Shown here: piece by piece, positions 20,285-30,424 of the stretch
How positions within the stretch are numbered: the stretch's first letter is position 1
Layout of the letters: every line of letters starts with the position of its first letter
Assembly (NCBI GenBank): GCA_964403585.1
Contig: CAYOFQ010000001.1
Location: 648,630 to 712,629, forward strand
Direction: 5' to 3'
Source: an uncultured Gammaproteobacteria bacterium
GTDB taxonomy: Bacteria > Patescibacteriota > Microgenomatia > JALYQM01
Length of the DNA: 64,000 bases
The notes under the pieces: model-generated
What the model was told of the DNA's origin: nothing
Seen by the model: only the letters and a program-made list of their open reading frames with translations
Databases searched by the model: none
Translations under genes and position numbers: made by a program

Positions 20285-22798
20285 TCACTCATTGCTACCT
20301 ATTAACTGGAGTTCTTTCCACACCAGCTGGTGAGATTCTTTACCTGCCGGATTAATTGAAATTTGCTGCGTTAATTCTCTCCAGCGGGAGTGCATCTCCA
20401 GTGGATGCGCGTACTGTTCGGCATTGGCATCAGTCATCTCTTCCGTGTAATGTATAGTTCTGCGACCCGTCGATTCAATGAGAATATTTTGCTTCTCAAA
20501 CATGCGATATGTGTTTTGAAAATTAATTACCGGCTCAGTCAGATACGCATACTCTTTAATCAAATCCCACAACACATCATTCACCGCTTCGGAAGTTTCC
20601 ACTACCGGCAGTCCTAAATTTTTTGCTTCAAAGTATACAATCGGATAATCGCTCGAAGGATAACTTTGAGTCAGTGTTTGAACAATCTGTGCTATTTGAG
20701 CATCGGTTCCAGGTGTTTTTCTCAGCTTTAAAAGATTGGTACAAATCCGTTGAACTAATGACAACTGTCGGTTTGCAGCTGCAGTAACTAACGGATGGAA
20801 TGTTTCAGGATCCTGGTTTACCACAGCAGTTGAGGCTTCTTTTTGTCTTGCCGTTGATTTAGACGGCAGCGGGTTTGATGCCTGGAAAATTTCGTTGAGC
20901 GGCACCGCTACTGATTCCTGGTCAAACGATTTGCTGAGCAATTTATGCGAGAACCAGGTGTCAACAGGTGAAAGAAATCCGAACGGATTCATAAGTATCG
21001 AATCACCCGATAACGCCATCATTGTTGTCGCAACCGAAGATTCTTCAGGTAAAATTACCGTCAACTCGTCACAAAACTCGCGAACCAATGTCGCCATTCT
21101 CCAGATAACAGTGCTGTCCGCATCCTGAATAATTGGCAACAAGTAGAGCGATTTCTTTTTTCCTAACTTTCGCAAGTGGCTATAGAGATAGCGCATATCC
21201 TCCATGGATACATAGGTATTGGCCGCATAATACACGAGAACTTTTCCGTGCAGAGATTCTTCCAGGCGTTCAATCGATTCCTGTGTTCGCTCCCAGGCAA
21301 CCGGAGGTTTGCGCGGCGGAAGTGACCCGCTTTGATTTTGAGTCTTTGCTTGTGGACGTTCGGCACGTTGTTCAGGGGCTGGGAGGCGCTGCTCGCGTTC
21401 TTGCTGACGTTGGTCCCGGTCCGGCTGGCGTTGCTCCCGTTCAGGTCGTTGTTCACGCTCCGGCGGACGCTGTTCGCGGTCTGCTCGTTGTTCACGATCT
21501 GCCTGCCGAGGCGGACGTTCTGATTGAGGCATCTCTTTTGGTGCTTCCGGTGTCGTAATATCATTCTCAAAGCGGGGCTCTTCCTGCCGTGCTCGTGGCG
21601 GTTCAGTCTGTATTTTTGGCGCGGGGGGTGCCACCGTTTTTTGTTCAGCACGAGGCATCTGTTCACGCTGTTTAGGCTGCTCAGGTTGCCGTGCAGGTTG
21701 TTGTTGCGACTGCTGCTTTGGTGCTGGCTGTTCCGCCAGCTGGGGAGCTGCTTGAGCCTTCGACTCTTTTTTGGGAGCTGCTGCTACCGGCGGTGCTGGT
21801 GGTTTCGACTGCTGCTGTTGTTGTTTTGGTTGTTGAGGTACCTGCTCAGGCGGCCGCTGCTGCTGTTGCTGAGGGGCTTTTGGCTGTTGCGTCTGCTGCT
21901 TCGGCTGCGGGGGTTGCTGGGGCTGTCGTGCCGGTGCGGGTTGGGGAACCGGTGGCATTTGCTGTGCAGGTTGATTTTGATTAAACGCAGCTTGAAGCGG
22001 CGGAATTGCCGGAGGGCGGCCCGGTGCCTGACCAGGCTGCATCTGTGCATTAAGTGGCGGCAATGACGGTACGCGCTGCGGTTCAGTAGCCTGCGGCATG
22101 GATGGCATCGTTAATGGCGGTAGTACGGGTGATTTATCGGCGACAGTACCGGAAGGGTCATCAAACTGTAAACCGCTGCTCTTCAGCAGATCGTCCAGAC
22201 TCGGTAACTCAAAGGGCACATTTTGCGGATTGGCCTGCTGTCCCTGGTTACTGAAAGGAAGCGGCGGAATCTGACTCTGCTGCGGTACCGGGTTTTCAAC
22301 AGGGGGACGTCCAGGTGGTTGGTTAGGCATAGGCGCTTGACGCTGCGGAGCTGCAGGCTGAGGTGCCGGCATTGGGGCCGGTGCCTCCGGAGCCGGTGCA
22401 GTTCCGTTTGTATAACTTTCCCAGGCTAAATCAGTGATTCTTTTGTAAATCAGGTCAAAGGGCGCTTTTCGCATCTCTCCTTTAAGCCGCTGATAGCTGG
22501 TCATCGTTACCGTATTGTTGCCCATCGCGTCAACGATACTCAAGGTAACATCGGGCACATTGGGAGACGATCCTGAATCATGAACAATATTCGGCAGCTG
22601 AAAAAAACCGACTTCCCTGGCATATTGCAGGACTTCGATAACTTTCTGTCGCTCAATCTGCCGTTCGACGATATCTGTATCAGACTCAAAAATGAGCATT
22701 CGCCCATTGTCGTAAATTTCAACATCCCCGGCACGGGAGTTTGGCGGCAACATACCACCACTCATTTTTACTAGAATAGCTAGATTTGAAACAGGCAT
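20285..22798 (-). CDS. Large (837 aa) protein: N-terminal globular region, very long P/Q/A-rich disordered segment with REQR/DREQR repeats, and a C-terminal ClpP/SDH-like (serine peptidase fold) domain
   Basis: Long, clean ORF. Low-complexity PQ-rich core (…PQPAPARQPQQPPQPKQQTQQPKAPQQQQQRPP…) and tandem DREQRADREQRPPEREQRPEREQRQPDRDQRQQEREQR. C-terminal region KVLVYYAANTYV…LPEESSVATTMMALSGDSILMNPFGFLSPVD resembles the SDH/ClpP-class serine peptidase fold. Confidence 0.7.
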   Translation of the reverse strand: MPVSNLAILVKMSGGMLPPNSRAGDVEIYDNGRMLIFESDTDIVERQIERQKVIEVLQYAREVGFFQLPNIVHDSGSSPNVPDVTLSIVDAMGNNTVTMTSYQRLKGEMRKAPFDLIYKRITDLAWESYTNGTAPAPEAPAPMPAPQPAAPQRQAPMPNQPPGRPPVENPVPQQSQIPPLPFSNQGQQANPQNVPFELPSLDDLLKSSGLQFDDPSGTVADKSPVLPPLTMPSMPQATEPQRVPSLPPLNAQMQPGQAPGRPPAIPPLQAAFNQNQPAQQMPPVPQPAPARQPQQPPQPKQQTQQPKAPQQQQQRPPEQVPQQPKQQQQQSKPPAPPVAAAPKKESKAQAAPQLAEQPAPKQQSQQQPARQPEQPKQREQMPRAEQKTVAPPAPKIQTEPPRARQEEPRFENDITTPEAPKEMPQSERPPRQADREQRADREQRPPEREQRPEREQRQPDRDQRQQEREQRLPAPEQRAERPQAKTQNQSGSLPPRKPPVAWERTQESIERLEESLHGKVLVYYAANTYVSMEDMRYLYSHLRKLGKKKSLYLLPIIQDADSTVIWRMATLVREFCDELTVILPEESSVATTMMALSGDSILMNPFGFLSPVDTWFSHKLLSKSFDQESVAVPLNEIFQASNPLPSKSTARQKEASTAVVNQDPETFHPLVTAAANRQLSLVQRICTNLLKLRKTPGTDAQIAQIVQTLTQSYPSSDYPIVYFEAKNLGLPVVETSEAVNDVLWDLIKEYAYLTEPVINFQNTYRMFEKQNILIESTGRRTIHYTEEMTDANAEQYAHPLEMHSRWRELTQQISINPAGKESHQLVWKELQLIGSNE

Positions 22799-23683: not shown

Positions 23684-24343
23684 ATGGTAATTAATAAAAG
23701 CAAAGTTATATCCTTGCCACGCGAATATCGCGATAACGAAGACCTTTTTGTTTGCCCGTGCCCTGTGTGCGTGGAGAGAATGTATTCAGACCAAGCCGAG
23801 AAGGCGCAGGTGGAACAAGCCAAAAATATCATTGAAGAAATTTTCCAAAACTCGGCGCTTAAAGTAAAAGACTTCCAGATTCAGGTGGCCTATGCTGACA
23901 CAATTCCAACTGCTCCGGCTAATAAGCCGCGTCCGGAGACTAGAGCTTCACGTGCCGCAATTAAAGCCGTCCTGGGATTAACCACCCGTTTTAACAAGAA
24001 ATACCGTCATCCACTGGTTTGCCAGTTAAATGCATTGGCTTTAGACACACAGACGGACATTCTCCATTACGAAGCCATGGTGGAATACGGTGATTTGGTT
24101 GAAAACCAATTATGGAAGCTGGAAGCAATTGCGACTCAGGTTACGCAAATTGCAGAGATCCTCAGCCAAATTGGTACCGAAGCTTTTCTCAGTCCCGAAA
24201 GAGTTGTTGCCCTGGATAAAAAAATTGAGGTTATCTCACGATCCAATAAAATTCAGCTTAAGAAACTTTTTATCAACGCACTGAAAATACCTGAATTTGA
24301 ACCGCATTGCACATTCGAAGATTTTCAACTACCCTATTATTAA
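23684..24343 (+). CDS. Hypothetical protein
   Basis: 219-aa ORF with no recognisable motif. TATATAAATG context suggests a -10-like box adjacent to the ATG. Confidence 0.5.
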   Translation: MVINKSKVISLPREYRDNEDLFVCPCPVCVERMYSDQAEKAQVEQAKNIIEEIFQNSALKVKDFQIQVAYADTIPTAPANKPRPETRASRAAIKAVLGLTTRFNKKYRHPLVCQLNALALDTQTDILHYEAMVEYGDLVENQLWKLEAIATQVTQIAEILSQIGTEAFLSPERVVALDKKIEVISRSNKIQLKKLFINALKIPEFEPHCTFEDFQLPYY

Positions 24344-24804
24344 TGAGACATCTAAAGACAGTCGTATCTTTCCTGCTCTTGGTGGTGGCAGTCGCTTCAT
24401 TTGGGGCAATAATGTATTCCCGCCGTGAAGTAATCGGCAAAAAATACCTACGCATCAATAACACTGATGTATTTGTCGAAGTAGTGGCTACACCGCAGGA
24501 CCGGGAGAAGGGGTTAAGCGGACATGCACCTCTGGCCCAAAACGAAGGGATGCTCTTTATTTTCGATGAGCCCAAACGCTGGTCGTTCTGGATGCAGGGA
24601 ATGACATTCGGGCTGGATTTTATCTGGATAAATGATAATAAAGTTATCGATCTGCATGAAAACGTCAAGCCTCCGATGCTCACCGATAATAACCCCGAAG
24701 TATTGAGCCCCCGGCTTGATGTTCGCTATGTTCTCGAAGTGAATGAAGGATGGATCAGCAAAAATAATGTAAAAATTGGTGACCTCGTAGAATTCCACAT
24801 CTAA
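24343..24804 (+). CDS. DUF192 (COG1430) family protein
   Basis: N-terminal TM helix plus the DUF192-like core (LSGHAPLAQNEGMLFIFDEPKRWSFWMQGMTFGLDFIWIND). ATG at 24343 overlaps the upstream stop (TAATG). The track start at 24307 is an alternative. Confidence 0.65.
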   Translation: MRHLKTVVSFLLLVVAVASFGAIMYSRREVIGKKYLRINNTDVFVEVVATPQDREKGLSGHAPLAQNEGMLFIFDEPKRWSFWMQGMTFGLDFIWINDNKVIDLHENVKPPMLTDNNPEVLSPRLDVRYVLEVNEGWISKNNVKIGDLVEFHI

Positions 24805-25044: not shown

Positions 25045-25100
25045 CCATTTACAGTCAATGGCATGTGCTCCTATAATAACTATACTTGGAGAGAGTAATC

Positions 25101-26762
25101 ATGTCTGAACTGCCCACAATCAAAGTAACGTATATCGTTGATACGCTTTTACCTGAAAAATGTCACGATCTCATTGCCATCCATGCTCTTTATGGCGAAG
25201 TTGATGATCAGGATGTCGGTTCATTTGCCGAAAGTCTGATCCTGAACCGCTGGACAAAAGAAGTTGTATCACGCGAAAAATATTCTCAATCCTCCCAGGT
25301 CATTACGCTTAATGAGCATAAGTATTCGGTACCTGTGTCACGATTTAGCCAGAGCCAAACCTTATTTCCTGAAAAAATACTTTCGGAAATACTTTCCGAG
25401 ACGGAAAAGATTCGTATGCATGACCCGCTCACTAAACAGGTGCTACTTATCGTTACGGGAGATAATGTCTTGCATAATGTTTCTATCCGGAAACAGAGCC
25501 ATCTGCCGATTATTCATTTTACTCGCAATACTAACCAGCCACAAAAAATTATCACCGTTCACCCCAACCATTCCGGGATAGCACACGGATTTTTCCATAA
25601 GATTTCGACAAAATCAGAACTTTCCCGGGTAAAGAGGGATACAATCATCGCAGCACCATATCGGATTCTCAAAGAGTACCGGGGCAAATGCAACGGGATA
25701 CTCATTCTAAAAGATCAAACACATTCGGGACCTTATACGATGCACTTCTCGGGCCCGCATCTGGTCGTGGAATCCGCAGATCTTAAAGACATTCCCGAAC
25801 GTACCTATATTTCGCTCAACTCATCCCGGGGTGAGATAGCCATTATTGGCAAAAACGCCCAACTGCGTTCGACTCAGCTGACAGTAACGCAGAAACGCTT
25901 AATCAGAAAAGTTGAAACGGAACAGGTAAAATTCTTCCGGGATCTTTCCGCCGGATCAAAAGGCGAGACACCTACCGTGTACGGGTATAGTTTACTTAAT
26001 CCCACCGAATTGGTCAGATCCGTGCTTGAGCGTCATCGGTCCGGAAGTTTTACGCAAGCACTGATCGATTATATAATGGGGGATTTAAGGCTAACCCCTC
26101 GTAAGCCGTTAGTATACCAGTCACTTTGTGTCAGTTTGGGAACCAAAAATGTATTTGGCAAACACGGTGGGCAGTATTTGCGGGAAAGTCCGGACTTCTT
26201 CCTTGAAGAGTTGGAAGCCCTGCACCAATTATTGTATGTCTATAATTTCTCCGATATAACCCTTACTATTCCGTTTGTAAGAACGGTAAAGGAGCTCGAA
26301 GATATTAAGAAAATAATTGCCAGGCATAAGCTGACGCGTTCGCATAAATTCAAGTTGTTTATTACTGTGCAGGTACCCGCGAACATTCTGCAGTTGAACG
26401 AATATCTCGATGCCGGTTTGGATGGCGTTATTATTGATCTGCAGTGTCTTACCGATCTTACCCTGGGAATTGATTCACATCTATTCAGGAAAGAGTACCG
26501 ACAGGCGGCCCACACATACGAGTTTATGGATGAGACATTTCGCGCTATGCGCAGTGGAGGTGTCTGGGAGATCGATGCGGAGCTGTTTAGACAAGTAAAA
26601 CTCGATGCTGCCATCAATCGAATTTTGGAACATACACGGGAAATCTGCCGCCGTCGTAAGACACCTGTTTATTTATATTTACCGGATACCTATGAAGAAG
26701 AAGTGGAGCAGGAGCTCCGTAAGCAAACTTTGCCTCATTCAGTAATTCCCGCTTATGCCTAA
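25101..26762 (+). CDS. PEP-utilizing enzyme family protein (Enzyme I / PEP synthase-like phosphohistidine + TIM-barrel domains), highly divergent
   Basis: The C-terminal roughly 300 aa align to the PEP-utilizing TIM-barrel (ITLTIPFVRTVKELEDIKKII...LFITVQVPANILQLNEYLDAGLDGVIIDLQCLTDLTLGIDSH; compare MIEVP...FFSIGTNDLTQ). The central segment DQTHSGPYTMHFSGPHLVVES...GEIAI resembles the mobile phosphohistidine domain (GGRTSHAAI...P.VVG...G.V). Several canonical catalytic positions appear substituted. ATG at 25101 has a GGAGAG SD; the track start at 25086 is TTG. Confidence 0.65.
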   Translation: MSELPTIKVTYIVDTLLPEKCHDLIAIHALYGEVDDQDVGSFAESLILNRWTKEVVSREKYSQSSQVITLNEHKYSVPVSRFSQSQTLFPEKILSEILSETEKIRMHDPLTKQVLLIVTGDNVLHNVSIRKQSHLPIIHFTRNTNQPQKIITVHPNHSGIAHGFFHKISTKSELSRVKRDTIIAAPYRILKEYRGKCNGILILKDQTHSGPYTMHFSGPHLVVESADLKDIPERTYISLNSSRGEIAIIGKNAQLRSTQLTVTQKRLIRKVETEQVKFFRDLSAGSKGETPTVYGYSLLNPTELVRSVLERHRSGSFTQALIDYIMGDLRLTPRKPLVYQSLCVSLGTKNVFGKHGGQYLRESPDFFLEELEALHQLLYVYNFSDITLTIPFVRTVKELEDIKKIIARHKLTRSHKFKLFITVQVPANILQLNEYLDAGLDGVIIDLQCLTDLTLGIDSHLFRKEYRQAAHTYEFMDETFRAMRSGGVWEIDAELFRQVKLDAAINRILEHTREICRRRKTPVYLYLPDTYEEEVEQELRKQTLPHSVIPAYA

Positions 26763-27894
26763 AATCGAAAAACTTACTGCTATAAAGATTTCGCACGACA
26801 ATACGTCTCTCCTTGGGATTCAGCTGAAGCTGGATAATGGTTTGGTAGTCCAGTCAAATTTTCCGGTGCAGGGTAATGACCCTACACATGATGTTACTAA
26901 GGCTATGACGGTTATCAATGACATAGTCGCGCAAATCGTCGAAGGACTTAATCCGCTGCGCCAAAAAGAACTTGATAAAATGATCACCGAATTAAGTGCA
27001 ATTCACGAACAGTCGGCACTACGGGCAAATATATCACTTGCTCTCTCTCTCACTATATTAAAAGCCGCCGCCGCACTTAATAATCTTGATCCGGTTACCT
27101 ATATACGTACAATATATGGTTTCGATCAAGGTAGAGAGCATCGGCCGATCCTGGTTTTTACGTGTATCAAAAATGAAGGAGGCACGGGAGCTTTTAAAGA
27201 GTTTTTCGTGATCCCTGCACGCAGTAAATCAACTTCGGAGTCATTGCTGATGTTCCGGGGTGTTGCTGCTGCATTAAAATCCGATACTCCGCTGATCACC
27301 ACTCACCATGAAATCATGAATACGGTGCAAATCGAATTATTGGAAAAACAGATACTCTGTCTGGGATTTTCATTGCACCATGATGTGTATCTCGGATTCA
27401 AGCCGGATCTCATCTATGACGAACAAAGAGGGTACCGTTGTACTGATATGCTGCAGGATGTCAGTGCCAACCAGATGGTTGAATATTACAAGGAACTCCA
27501 GACGTTATATTCACCATTAATTCAAGAAAATCTGTTTGCCTCTCATGACCTTATTTCGCTCGTAACACTCCATAAAGAGATTGGTGATCAAACAATACTC
27601 ACCGTGAGTTCCGAACGTGTCACCACGCCGGTTGAGTGCCGCAGGTATGCTGCTGCGCTGCCCACAGCGATGCTGAATTTAACGCATCAATCAGTTCCTT
27701 CGGTAACACAGTATATCGAGCTAATCGATGCCGCTAAAAAAGCTGATTGGAAGGTAATGATCGATACGAATGGCTGCAGTGATTATGGATTGTTATTCGC
27801 CCTCTCAGCTGCCGCTCAGGTGGACTTTATAAAAATGGATAGGTGTGACTTAGAAATAGAAAAGGAACTCTCATATGTTGGACAAAGCGATTAA
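26755..27894 (+). CDS. Enolase-family protein, divergent (probable pseudo-enolase lacking most catalytic residues)
   Basis: Clear enolase-specific similarity in the N-terminal and central regions (VTKAMTVINDIVAQIVEG...ANISLALSLTILKAAAALNNLDPVTYIRTIYG vs enolase VTKAVAAVNGPIAQALIG...GANAILAVSLANAKAAAA...PLYEHIAELNG, and ILVFTCIKNEGGTGAFKEFFVIPARSKSTSESLLMFRGVAAALK vs [30 protein letters not shown]...EVFHHLAKVLK). It is only 379 aa, the SGASTG loop is deleted, and the catalytic Glu/Lys/Asp positions appear replaced when compared by eye. Confidence 0.7.
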   Translation: MPKIEKLTAIKISHDNTSLLGIQLKLDNGLVVQSNFPVQGNDPTHDVTKAMTVINDIVAQIVEGLNPLRQKELDKMITELSAIHEQSALRANISLALSLTILKAAAALNNLDPVTYIRTIYGFDQGREHRPILVFTCIKNEGGTGAFKEFFVIPARSKSTSESLLMFRGVAAALKSDTPLITTHHEIMNTVQIELLEKQILCLGFSLHHDVYLGFKPDLIYDEQRGYRCTDMLQDVSANQMVEYYKELQTLYSPLIQENLFASHDLISLVTLHKEIGDQTILTVSSERVTTPVECRRYAAALPTAMLNLTHQSVPSVTQYIELIDAAKKADWKVMIDTNGCSDYGLLFALSAAAQVDFIKMDRCDLEIEKELSYVGQSD

Positions 27895-29452
27895 GCCGGT
27901 GGTACTGCTCATCTTTGATGGATTTGGTATCGCTCCGGCCAGCAACGGCAATGCGGTAACTCAGGCCAATATGCCTAACTTCCATAATTTTTCAGCACGG
28001 TTCCCGCACGGTCGGCTACAGTCAAGCGGAACCGCAGTTGGACTTACTCCCGGTGAAGTCGGTTCAACCGAGGTCGGTCACCTCAATATGGGCGCCGGGC
28101 GGGTTGTGTATCAGGATTTACCGCGGATCAATATGTCTATTTCCGAAGGAACATTTCTGACCATCCCGGCACTGGTATCTGCCGCAAATCACGCCCGCGA
28201 AAATAATTCTAATCTCCATTTAATGGGGCTGGTCAGTAACGGCAATGTGCATGCCTCTATTGAGCATCTCTATGCATTATTATGGTTTGCCCGGGCGCAG
28301 GGACTATCTCAAAATCAGGTAAAAATCCATGCTTTTTTGGATGGTCGGGATACTCCGCCAACATCGGGGAAAATGTTCCTGGCTCAAGTTGAAGAGAAGG
28401 CCAGTGCCCTACAAATTGGACAGATCGCCAGCATCGCCGGAAGATATTATGCCATGGATCGCGACAACCGATGGGAGCGTATCGAAAAAGCATACCGTGC
28501 ACTGGTTTTTGGTCAGGGTGACACAGCACATTCGGCTCAGGAGGCTATCCAAAACAGTTACAGTAAGAACGTCACTGATGAATTTGTCGTGCCAACCGTA
28601 ATCCTTGATGATCAGAACCAGCCTGTAGGCCAAATAAAAGATAACGATGCGGCGATTTTCTTCAACTTTCGTACCGACCGCCCGCGTGAGTTAACCAAGG
28701 CCATTGTTCTGGATAATTTTAATACTACCGATCGGCCCGCCTTTGACCGCGGAACTAAAGTAAGCAATCTGTTTTTCGTCACCATGACTGAATATGACCG
28801 GGAACTTACGGTGAATGGAATTGCCTTCCCACAGGAAAAAATTAACATGCCGTTGTGCCGTGTCCTTTCTAACCACGATTTACGGCATCTTCATATCGCC
28901 GAAACTGAAAAGGAACGATTTACGACATTCTTTTTCAATGGCATGCGCGAGGACCCGTTCCCGGGAGAGGAACGTATTTTTATTCCGTCACCCAAGATTC
29001 CGACATATGATTTAAAACCTGAAATGTCGAGTTTTGAAATTACCGACGCCTTTCTGAAAAAACTCGATCAGCAGTCTTTCGATTTTTGTGTTATCAACTT
29101 CGCTGCTTCCGACATGGTTGCCCATACCGGAAAGCTTGATGCCGCTATTAAAGCCTGCGAAGCCCTAGATATTTGCCTTGGAAAAATCGTCAATGCCGTT
29201 TTAAATGTTGGCGGAGCAGTGTTGCTGACAGCCGATCACGGCAACGTCGAAAAAATGATCGATGAAAACAATGTTCCGGATCCCGAACATACCAACAATC
29301 CTGTTCCGTTTTTAATTATGGCTAAAGAATTAAACTCACTCCAGCTCCCGTATGGAATTCTCGCCGATGTTGCTCCAACGATTTTGGCTTTAATGGGAGT
29401 TCCAAAGCCATCTGAAATGACCGGACGGAACTTGTTACCGAGCTCACATTAA
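27875..29452 (+). CDS. gpmI: 2,3-bisphosphoglycerate-independent phosphoglycerate mutase (iPGM)
   Basis: Near-canonical iPGM: PVVLLIFDGFG, GRYYAMDRDNRWERIEKAY, NFRTDRPRE, FAASDMVAHTG, LLTADHGN. The nucleophile context reads GSTEVGH rather than GNSEVGH, placing Thr at the Ser position. Confidence 0.88.
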   Translation: MLDKAIKPVVLLIFDGFGIAPASNGNAVTQANMPNFHNFSARFPHGRLQSSGTAVGLTPGEVGSTEVGHLNMGAGRVVYQDLPRINMSISEGTFLTIPALVSAANHARENNSNLHLMGLVSNGNVHASIEHLYALLWFARAQGLSQNQVKIHAFLDGRDTPPTSGKMFLAQVEEKASALQIGQIASIAGRYYAMDRDNRWERIEKAYRALVFGQGDTAHSAQEAIQNSYSKNVTDEFVVPTVILDDQNQPVGQIKDNDAAIFFNFRTDRPRELTKAIVLDNFNTTDRPAFDRGTKVSNLFFVTMTEYDRELTVNGIAFPQEKINMPLCRVLSNHDLRHLHIAETEKERFTTFFFNGMREDPFPGEERIFIPSPKIPTYDLKPEMSSFEITDAFLKKLDQQSFDFCVINFAASDMVAHTGKLDAAIKACEALDICLGKIVNAVLNVGGAVLLTADHGNVEKMIDENNVPDPEHTNNPVPFLIMAKELNSLQLPYGILADVAPTILALMGVPKPSEMTGRNLLPSSH

Positions 29453-29806: not shown

Positions 29807-30424
29807 CTATTGATACTTACGGATCACACCAACAACTTTACCTTGAATTTGAACATCGGTTGCATAGATAGGTTGCATGGTACTGTTGGCCGGTTCAAGA
29901 CGAATACGGTTTGGCTCTTTGTAAAATCGTTTTAATGTAGCTAATCCGTTTTCAAGCAAAGCTACAACTATTTCACCGTTGCGGGCTGTCTCCTGACGCT
30001 CAATAATAACGAAATCGCCATCTAAAATCCCGTCTTCAATCATCGACTCGCCTTTAACTTGCAGTACATAAGTCGGCTTTTTACCTGAAATCATTCCTGA
30101 ACTGACTGTCATTGCTGCGTTCGGGTCGGTAAATGTAGCAATCGGCTGACCAGCGGCAATGTACCCGAGAATCGGTAACTCTACGCCTTCCAGCATATTG
30201 CCCATCTTTTTTTCCAGAACCTCAATCCCGCGCACCATACCTTCGTATTTCCTGATTAATTTTTTCTTCGTCAATGCCTGTAAATGTTCGTGAACAGTGG
30301 CCAACGACTTTACATTGATCGCATCGGCAATTTCCTGCAAGGTAGGAGAGTAGCCATTCTTCTGAATATATTGTGAAATAAAATCTAATATCTGACGCTG
30401 CTTTCGGTATACTATAACGGGCAT
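29807..30424 (-). CDS. lexA: LexA repressor (S24 peptidase)
   Basis: N-terminal winged HTH (ILDFISQYIQKNGYSPTLQEIADAINVKSLATVHEHLQALTKKKLI) and C-terminal S24 autoprotease domain with GESM Ser and KR Lys. Confidence 0.9.
   Translation of the reverse strand: MPVIVYRKQRQILDFISQYIQKNGYSPTLQEIADAINVKSLATVHEHLQALTKKKLIRKYEGMVRGIEVLEKKMGNMLEGVELPILGYIAAGQPIATFTDPNAAMTVSSGMISGKKPTYVLQVKGESMIEDGILDGDFVIIERQETARNGEIVVALLENGLATLKRFYKEPNRIRLEPANSTMQPIYATDVQIQGKVVGVIRKYQ

Follow-up and report, generated by a model that had tools for sequence, protein, structure and literature searches.

Does the gene at positions 26755..27894 (+) of the stretch of bacterial DNA analysed here (64,000 nucleotides of contig CAYOFQ010000001.1, hereafter the window) still encode an enolase, or has its product kept the enolase fold and lost the enolase reaction? 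The gene was delimited from the list of open reading frames (ORFs), and its product of 379 amino acids (aa) was characterized by profile searches, alignments and an AlphaFold2 (AF2) model. It lies between a gene for a homologue of phosphoenolpyruvate (PEP) synthase, PpsA, and a gene for cofactor-independent phosphoglycerate mutase (iPGM). An original prediction, made from the letters of this DNA, had put the protein forward as a candidate pseudoenzyme. Based on the results below, we think it probable that the enolase-like protein is a folded, selected and catalytically inactive descendant of an operonic enolase; we infer the term pseudoenzyme for it, its inactivity being predicted from the residues that it carries.

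Homology, fold and active-site residues of the enolase-like protein

Homology to enolase is secure and far beyond chance. Pfam Enolase_N (PF03952) matches residues 45-116 with 38.5 bits (E 1.5e-9), above its gathering score of 35, and Enolase_C (PF00113) matches with 26.3 bits (E 5.4e-6), above its gathering score of 21.5, which places the protein in these families at the level of domains, that is, of homology only. The TIGR01060 enolase equivalog gives 68.4 bits (E 4.5e-19), far below its curated cutoff of 300 bits. The matches of phmmer in the PDB are all enolases (best E 1.9e-15), BLASTP aligns the protein with Escherichia coli Eno at 23% identity (E 1e-9), and hhalign of the profile of a nine-member family, described below, with a profile of 18 canonical enolases reaches a probability of 100 and an E of 1.1e-47 over 361 columns. 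By a hidden Markov model (HMM) of canonical enolases built here, the window protein scores 120 bits and E. coli enolase 590 bits. The original prediction had also called the homology secure, quoted two conserved enolase blocks, which align as stated in both BLASTP and hhalign, and put the protein at about 50 aa short; the measured difference from E. coli Eno is 52 aa, with a C-terminal helix region that is some 20 aa shorter.

The fold is that of a two-domain enolase. An AF2 model calculated from an alignment of 73 homologues (predicted local distance difference test score, pLDDT, 92.3; predicted template modelling score, pTM, 0.91) shows a complete N-terminal domain and eight barrel strands, and its top matches in Foldseek are all true enolases (template modelling score 0.81-0.86, E about 5e-22, 16-20% identity). 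The N-terminal capping domain (residues 1-126; 26755..27132, +), delimited by AF2 secondary structure, hhalign and Pfam Enolase_N, is the portion most conserved relative to real enolases, and it is followed by the C-terminal barrel of eight predicted strands (residues 127-379; 27133..27891, +; AF2 and hhalign).

The active site tells a different story from the fold. Numbering its positions after the mature E. coli enolase, and with the codons of the window residues verified, we read the losses from four methods (BLASTP, MAFFT L-INS-i, hmmalign and hhalign), which agree that eight of the eleven catalytic or ligand residues are missing and that only the equivalents of Glu167, Glu289 and Lys392 are kept. 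The triad Asp245/Glu289/Asp316, which we take to hold Mg(I), reads Lys216/Glu258/Ser285 by all four. Lys216 (27400..27402, +) stands in place of Asp245, a position occupied by Lys or Arg in seven of the nine family members and by Asn in the remaining two. Glu258 (27526..27528, +) is the counterpart of Glu289 and is invariant in the nine full-length members, and Asp290, the neighbour of this ligand, has become Asn259. By hhalign, Ser285-Ser286-Glu287 (27607..27615, +) replace Asp316-Asp317-Leu, with loss of the Mg ligand. Hence, among the carboxylates that the enolase superfamily carries at the ends of barrel strands 3, 4 and 5, the strand-4 Glu alone is left; in most relatives, not all, an acidic residue is found two positions downstream of the lost strand-3 and strand-5 (Asp316) sites.

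The acid-base machinery has fared no better. Of Lys341, presumably the catalytic base, and Glu167 and Glu208, presumably the catalytic acids, Glu167 alone is kept, as Glu149 (27199..27201, +; FKEF vs IQEF). The equivalent of Glu208 is gone with the deletion of the VGDEGGYAP segment, and Leu309-Thr310-His311 (27679..27687, +) replace Ile-Lys341-Phe, Lys341 itself being aligned with Leu309 by hhalign and BLASTP and with Thr310 by MAFFT. The Ser41 loop (SGASTG), to which we assign Mg(II) and substrate binding, is deleted along with about 16 surrounding residues; the equivalent of His158, which we place in an active-site loop, falls in a five-residue deletion that shortens this loop; and Asp337-Thr338-Asn339 (27763..27771, +; hhalign) replace His369-Arg370-Ser371, which we take to be the phosphate-binding residues. 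The three loops that serve as a lid over the active site have each been shortened or lost to deletion. Lys392, presumably engaged in stabilisation of the substrate and enolate, is kept as Lys360 (27832..27834, +; DFIK vs GQIK).

The essential catalytic residues are absent, then, and none of the four methods yields an alignment that restores the required Glu, Asp and Lys. Deletion of the SGASTG loop had been anticipated in the original prediction, as had the replacement of the positions of D317 and K342 by SSE and LNLTHQ, which we find as Asp316/Asp317 to Ser285/Ser286 and Lys341 to Leu309/Thr310. Its further claim of a shortened catalytic Glu region at GGEHAD was right about the loop and wrong about the residue, because the catalytic Glu167 lies in DIQEF and is kept as Glu149; it is His158 that was lost with the loop instead. 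Overlooked at that stage were the losses of Glu208, of Asp245 (to Lys216) and of His369/Arg370/Ser371 (to Asp337/Thr338/Asn339), as well as the retention of Glu289 as Glu258 and of Lys392 as Lys360.

The operon, its sister clade and the constraint on the protein

The gene upstream of the enolase-like gene encodes a truncated and degenerate PEP synthase homologue of 553 aa (25101..26762, +). Its start is taken at ATG 25101, after the gene call of L002; the mechanical ORF starts at TTG 25086 (558 aa). The assignment comes from Pfam PEP-utilizers_C (22.6 bits), the PpsA models of NCBIfam (E 1e-14), the PpsA structures 2ols/9dae of the PDB (E 3e-5) and BLASTP to the full-length PpsA proteins of L015 and L016 (E 8e-19 and 4e-17), with which the protein aligns from the swivel domain onward; its AF2 model (pLDDT 74.5) has PpsA/PPDK as top Foldseek matches (E 1e-14). 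Some 210 aa are lacking at the N-terminal end of the ATP-grasp domain, as are the GGxTSHAAI phospho-His motif and the Cys of CGQ; the Mg ligands are changed from Glu to Gln (TVQVPAN) and from Asn-Asp to Gln-Cys (DLQCLT), and the PEP-binding Arg residues are replaced by Asn, Gln or His. The catalytic motifs of PpsA are all absent in every member of the degenerate clade, and the PpsA-like neighbour is therefore an apparent second pseudoenzyme, predicted from its residues and co-degenerate with the enolase-like gene throughout.

The two genes are tightly linked to each other and to the gene for iPGM. The ATG of the enolase-like gene overlaps the stop of the PpsA-like gene by 8 nucleotides (nt; ATGCCTAA), with no Shine-Dalgarno sequence preceding it, and its 3' end is overlapped for 20 nt by the start of the iPGM gene; this three-gene unit with start/stop overlaps is conserved in all of a clade of uncultivated bacteria. 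The 525-aa iPGM (27875..29452, +) scores 614 bits with TIGR01307 (cutoff 331) and 547 bits when aligned with the Bacillus stearothermophilus iPGM 1ejj, all metal and substrate ligands being aligned and intact. Its nucleophile Ser62 has changed to Thr65 (codon 28067-28069; GSTEVGH vs GNSEVGH).

The same overlapping operon was found in sister metagenomic lineages (L019, L021, L022, L023, the partial L024 and the contig-end fragment L018), where it encodes canonical enzymes. In the first four, PpsA is 778-785 aa long with every catalytic motif present; the partial contig L024 has the same gene order with a 430-aa Eno (481 bits) and a PpsA cut by the contig end. The enolases of the sister clade are 422-431 aa long and score 468-500 bits against our canonical-enolase HMM. 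Those of L019, L021, L022, L023 and L024 keep all catalytic residues except Ser371, which is Leu (HRLGE vs HRSGE). This canonical form of the operon makes the enolase-like gene of the window, by its position, the orthologue of an operonic enolase that works, and it places the joint loss of catalytic residues from PpsA and enolase on the stem of the window clade.

The iPGM of the sister clade is about 50% identical to that of the window and has the same Thr variant. The Thr-type iPGM is fixed in the window clade and the sister clade and is absent from all other iPGMs compared. Considering that the sister-clade operons combine canonical Eno and PpsA with this variant, it was rejected as a part of the degeneration; it follows that the Thr-type iPGM is older than the loss of PpsA and enolase and compatible with the normal pathway. 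The nearest named outgroup of the clade's iPGM is that of a Patescibacteria metagenome-assembled genome (MAG).

Whether relatives of the window protein share its losses, as the original prediction proposed to check, can be answered from the family itself. An exhaustive search of 1.84 billion representatives returned P0003 (47%), P0004 (28%), P0005 (25%) and P0050 and P0058 (about 20%), below which the matches were ordinary enolases. A word-indexed search with the single window protein returned the protein itself and one relative at 49% identity; the family profile added no new members in this search (P0164 is a canonical enolase), and a profile scan of species-representative genomes with the three closest enolase-like sequences gave no match, so that the genome of the window is not one of these representatives. 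L006, L014, L017 and L038 were added by an iPGM-based scan of species-representative genomes and metagenomes. The resulting nine full-length members, 19-59% identical in pairs, and a truncated tenth do share the loss pattern. The Ser41 loop, Asp245, Asp316 and Lys341 are absent from all nine; Glu208 is lost in eight, hmmalign and MAFFT still aligning a Glu in P0004; and Arg370/Ser371 are lost in most, with His-Arg at 369/370 in P0058 and a Ser aligned at 371 in a few. Besides the invariant Glu289, Lys392 is kept in eight of the nine (MAFFT). The former catalytic positions vary between members, position 341 reading T, Y, T, N, Q, D, N, D and D across the nine. Eighteen residues are invariant among them, all except Arg156 being found in canonical enolases too, and from the alignment and the barrel topology these are mostly core or structural positions. 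A neighbour-joining tree of the matches is given no weight here, its distances being saturated and most of the family falling below its coverage filter.

With the canonical-enolase HMM, the degenerate clade reaches only 32-157 bits. Both proteins become shorter in its deepest branches, the PpsA-like and enolase-like proteins being 553 and 379 aa long in the window, 423 and 355 aa in L005 and 395 and 226 aa in L017. The L017 pair (L017:8079-9989) is the most eroded. Its enolase-like protein consists of the barrel only, with the N-terminal domain gone and Glu289 changed to Leu, and its gene overlaps the iPGM start by 4 nt. A sequencing or frameshift artefact was ruled out, as the same shortened architecture occurs in at least 10 independent assemblies. 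Fast evolution of the whole genome was ruled out as well, DnaE, TypA, UvrA, UvrB and iPGM scoring as canonical.

The genes of the locus differ greatly in their rate of change. Between the window and L014/L006, amino acid identity is 99-100% for LexA, 82-85% for iPGM, 64-71% for a Clp-fold protease, 55-57% for a 219-aa protein, 52-61% for a DUF192 protein, 47-49% for the PpsA-like protein and 46-49% for the enolase-like protein, these last two changing faster than all others at the locus. With only 42-56% identity among the three loci at the third codon positions of lexA, synonymous sites are close to saturation. Since an open frame, an intact fold and 46-49% identity persist, the enolase-like protein is under purifying selection, much weaker than that on iPGM. 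It has been maintained as a folded protein, with an intact ORF in at least 10 independent assemblies, the 18 invariant residues and a confident AF2 model.

The former active site does not stand out in this selection. For 40 positions surrounding the strand ends on the active-site side of the barrel, pairwise conservation was compared with that of the rest of the protein, with a p value from permutation. In the 18 canonical enolases, the active-site face scores 0.70 and the rest 0.34 (ratio 2.05, p<0.0002), and in the operonic enolases of the sister clade 0.83 and 0.52 (ratio 1.61, p<0.0002). For the degenerate family (n=9) the values are 0.32 and 0.28 (ratio 1.16, p=0.28), with the opposite, bottom face of the barrel more conserved (0.43), and for its five closest members 0.55 and 0.46 (p=0.09). 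Compared with its active homologues, the family has lost the constraint that is specific to the active site.

Weighing the explanations

Cumulatively, the residue losses, the orthology to the sister-clade enolase, the lost active-site constraint and an evolution faster than that of iPGM support the proposal of a candidate pseudoenzyme. We envisage that the operonic PpsA and enolase, which together would convert 2-phosphoglycerate to PEP and PEP to pyruvate, lost their chemistry jointly on the clade stem, and that the reading frames and folds of both proteins were retained after the catalytic loss. Lys216, in the place of Asp245, and Lys148 would probably fill the empty metal site by pairing with Glu149 and Glu258, and such putative salt bridges would account for the persistence of these two acidic residues. 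The protein could then have taken on a non-catalytic role, most likely as a structural or regulatory partner of the pseudo-PpsA and possibly of the translationally coupled iPGM; alternatively, it may have kept an ancestral moonlighting interaction of enolase.

Several observations weigh against this explanation. Gene order and parallel evolution are what point to a partnership with pseudo-PpsA and iPGM, and the inactivity is deduced from the residues themselves, of which three in the active site (Glu149, Glu258 and Lys360) persist. The closer subclade has in common a set of polar residues at the ends of the strands, namely Lys148/Glu149, Lys216-x-Asp/Glu218 (His in one of the five), Ser/Thr286-Asp/Glu287, Asp337 and Lys360-x-Asp362, and the active-site face of this subclade is slightly more conserved than the rest, as given above; with this residual polar pocket and its conservation, a remodelled binding site is a possibility. 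The strong constraint on iPGM is hard to explain if nothing makes or consumes 2-phosphoglycerate. The degenerate proteins P0016 and P0019, which occur beside canonical PpsA in glycolysis clusters, hint at a continuing part for proteins of this kind in the metabolism of PEP. Finally, the progressive shrinkage, down to the 226 aa of L017, could also mean slow decay.

A neofunctionalised enzyme or ligand-binding protein is the alternative that survives best, although we consider it unlikely. The barrel site would then be remodelled, possibly metal-independent, and act on a substrate other than 2-phosphoglycerate or PEP, using Lys148/Lys216/Lys360 and Glu149/Glu258/Asp218/Glu287/Asp337 together with the PpsA-like protein and the Thr-type iPGM. 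Consistent with such a site, the five closer relatives conserve these polar residues; most members carry an acidic residue two places beyond each Asp ligand that was lost; the metal ligands of both former PEP enzymes were altered within one clade; and the operon is tightly coupled and conserved, with a highly constrained iPGM. However, no replacement residue is conserved family-wide, as P0004/P0005 have Asn at 216 and P0050/P0058/L017 differ at 287, 311 and 337-339; conservation of the active-site face does not significantly exceed that of the rest (p=0.28 for the family and 0.09 for the subclade); deletions have removed the lid loops; and the L017 homologue has neither the N-terminal domain nor Glu289. 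As to the third component, the sister clade has a Thr-type iPGM alongside its canonical enolase, and this iPGM is therefore not part of a new pathway.

More speculatively, and with as little weight in our judgement, the small-genome bacteria of this clade may have no enolase and no PEP synthase at all, the dead pair and the translationally coupled Thr-type iPGM being subunits of an unknown assembly that replaces the segment from 2-phosphoglycerate to pyruvate. Such an assembly might regulate or act as a scaffold, or it might be a metal-independent enzyme made of two barrels that formerly bound PEP. Searches by tblastn with E. coli Eno and the Eno and PpsA of the sister clade found no second copy in the window or in L003, L005, L006, L014 and L017, sequences that make up only a minor share of each genome; a canonical eno may lie outside them.

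We regard it as improbable that the gene is a functionless relic, its frame held open merely for the passage of ribosomes to the coupled iPGM gene or caught in slow decay. The start/stop overlaps with both neighbours, the missing Shine-Dalgarno sequence, the fastest evolutionary rate in the locus and the progressive shortening between lineages, to 226 aa in L017, would all suit a relic. On the other side stand an amino acid identity of 46-49% where synonymous sites are near saturation, the 18 residues invariant over nine members that are 19-59% identical, the AF2 model with a pLDDT of 92 and the conserved barrel core and bottom face (0.43), and together these argue for selection on a folded protein and not merely on an open frame. 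Moreover, small genomes usually delete useless DNA.

Finally, it is hardly credible that the protein goes on serving the organism as its enolase by means of an unorthodox active site: it does occupy the operon position, between PpsA and iPGM, of the sister-lineage enolase, the 64-kb window and related loci of about 90 kb contain no other enolase, and the Glu167, Glu289 and Lys392 equivalents are kept, but Lys341, Glu208, two of the three Mg(I) ligands, the Mg(II) Ser loop and Arg370/Ser371 are all missing, single substitutions at Lys345, Glu168 or Glu211 of yeast enolase cut activity about 10^5-fold, the former catalytic positions vary even within the family, and the adjacent PpsA, the would-be user of PEP, appears degenerate as well.

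Known systems, wider occurrence and neighbouring genes

We return to the preferred explanation, that of a folded and inactive descendant of enolase, and set it beside known systems. With enolase itself (EC 4.2.1.11; TIGR01060, PF03952 and PF00113), the window protein has in common the two-domain fold, the homology over 361 columns and the operon position of the sister enolase. It differs in the 8 of 11 missing catalytic or ligand residues, the deleted lid loops, a length smaller by about 50 aa, a score of 68 vs 300 bits and an evolution much faster than that of its operon partner iPGM; real enolases rank with the most conserved proteins, and few enzymes are as universal as enolase or evolve as slowly. 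The mandelate racemase and muconate lactonizing enzyme (MR/MLE) subgroups of the superfamily (PF13378) have the barrel fold in common with it, but only one residue of the metal triad at the ends of strands 3-5 is left here. Membership in these subgroups was excluded, as the match to MR_MLE_C is weak (19.1 bits, below the gathering score of 29.4) and the best structural neighbours are all true enolases. The archaeal family NF006223 (PRK08350; a 341-aa model named 'hypothetical protein') is likewise short and enolase-related, and it matches the N-terminal part of the protein with 20.6 bits. Membership in it was also excluded, the cutoff being 624 bits and only residues 47-121 matching.

Non-catalytic uses of enolase in eukaryotes and bacteria include lens tau-crystallin, MBP-1 (an N-terminally truncated product of ENO1) and a component of the RNA degradosome, and PDB 9no4, an enolase in a Csm/anti-CRISPR complex, is among the phmmer and Foldseek matches in the PDB. 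In these cases the enolase fold serves as a binding or structural module, and the likeness of the window protein to them is one of analogy, not of membership; the N-terminally truncated homologue of L017 resembles MBP-1 in outline. In the known non-catalytic enolases, however, the same gene or a near-identical paralogue is still active, whereas in the window clade the catalytic residues themselves are gone. A further parallel is Caulobacter citrate synthase CitA, which is reported to have a role independent of its enzymatic activity (bioRxiv 10.1101/799742). Both would be central-metabolism folds in a non-enzymatic role, but CitA has a different fold and belongs to a different pathway, and for the window protein the loss of activity is inferred from its residues. 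Our literature searches found no description of a catalytically dead, fold-keeping, clade-wide bacterial enolase. What appears to be new is a candidate enolase-family pseudoenzyme paired with a candidate pseudo-PpsA.

Degenerate enolase homologues may be widespread in small-genome uncultivated bacteria. In a survey by hmmalign, two or more of the eleven catalytic residues are changed in 65 of 128 full-length homologues, a sample that was retrieved by the degenerate window query and is thereby biased to divergent sequences. In P0016 (L015:10001-11212) and P0019 (L016:6254-7453), 8-9 of the 11 catalytic residues are changed. Both genes lie directly downstream of fully canonical, full-length PpsA genes, and the cluster of P0016 in L015, one of sugar and pyruvate metabolism, also holds phosphoglucomutase, phosphoglucose isomerase, pyruvate:ferredoxin oxidoreductase and an AMP-forming ligase.

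This has practical consequences for annotation. The Pfam domains of the window family pass their thresholds, so that annotation pipelines would miscount it as 'enolase' (P0002 and P0058 already bear this name in JGI), and metabolic reconstructions would call lower glycolysis complete though two consecutive steps are probably missing; with some degenerate homologues adjoining intact PpsA, the mislabelling may reach beyond the clade. The locus is also a natural experiment, since the working sister operon is available for comparison. It presents two consecutive enzymes that appear to have lost catalysis together and were nevertheless retained, and it offers a route to the non-catalytic function of the enolase fold.

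Wherever flanks exist in the degenerate clade, the gene order is that of a protein of about 220 aa, a DUF192 protein, the PpsA-like protein, the enolase-like protein and iPGM, with lexA on the opposite strand. In the window, the first two genes (23684..24804, +) encode a 219-aa protein of no matched family, with a CPCPVC motif, and the DUF192 protein, a synteny found in all flanked relatives. The motif of the 219-aa protein reads CPCPVCVE, the protein is 55-57% conserved, and together with DUF192 it always precedes the operon in the degenerate clade. In two loci of the sister clade, genes for phosphoglucomutase and glucose-6-phosphate isomerase precede the operon and occupy the place of the genes for the 219-aa and DUF192 proteins. 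The 280-nt gap preceding the PpsA-like gene contains the best-scoring promoter-like site of the region (25048..25077, +; TTTACA, 18 nt, TATAAT; 11 of 12 matches), which is a match to consensus only, and such sites are no more numerous in the region than in shuffled sequence. A riboswitch or other RNA element in the operon leader was ruled out, the Rfam matches in the window being five tRNAs only.

Downstream, LexA (29807..30424, -) is a convergent neighbour whose synteny is conserved, as seen from the ORF list and the loci of the relatives. Between the window, L014 (11876-12493) and L006 (11928-12545), LexA is 99-100% identical in amino acids and lexA 79-84% identical in DNA; together with the third codon positions given above, this pattern indicates extraordinarily strong purifying selection and not recent transfer. 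The window and a MAG that bears only the label 'bacterium' are both collinear with the locus of L014 (CAZHTP010000002.1); the label 'uncultured Gammaproteobacteria bacterium' of L014 looks doubtful, the nearest named iPGM outgroup being the Patescibacteria MAG mentioned above. Upstream, an 837-aa protein (20285..22798, -) whose C-terminal domain is a Clp-fold serine protease of the SDH family is conserved next to the locus in L006 and L014; it contains a long Pro/Gln-rich low-complexity linker and coincides with a strong dip of AT skew at 20-22 kb.

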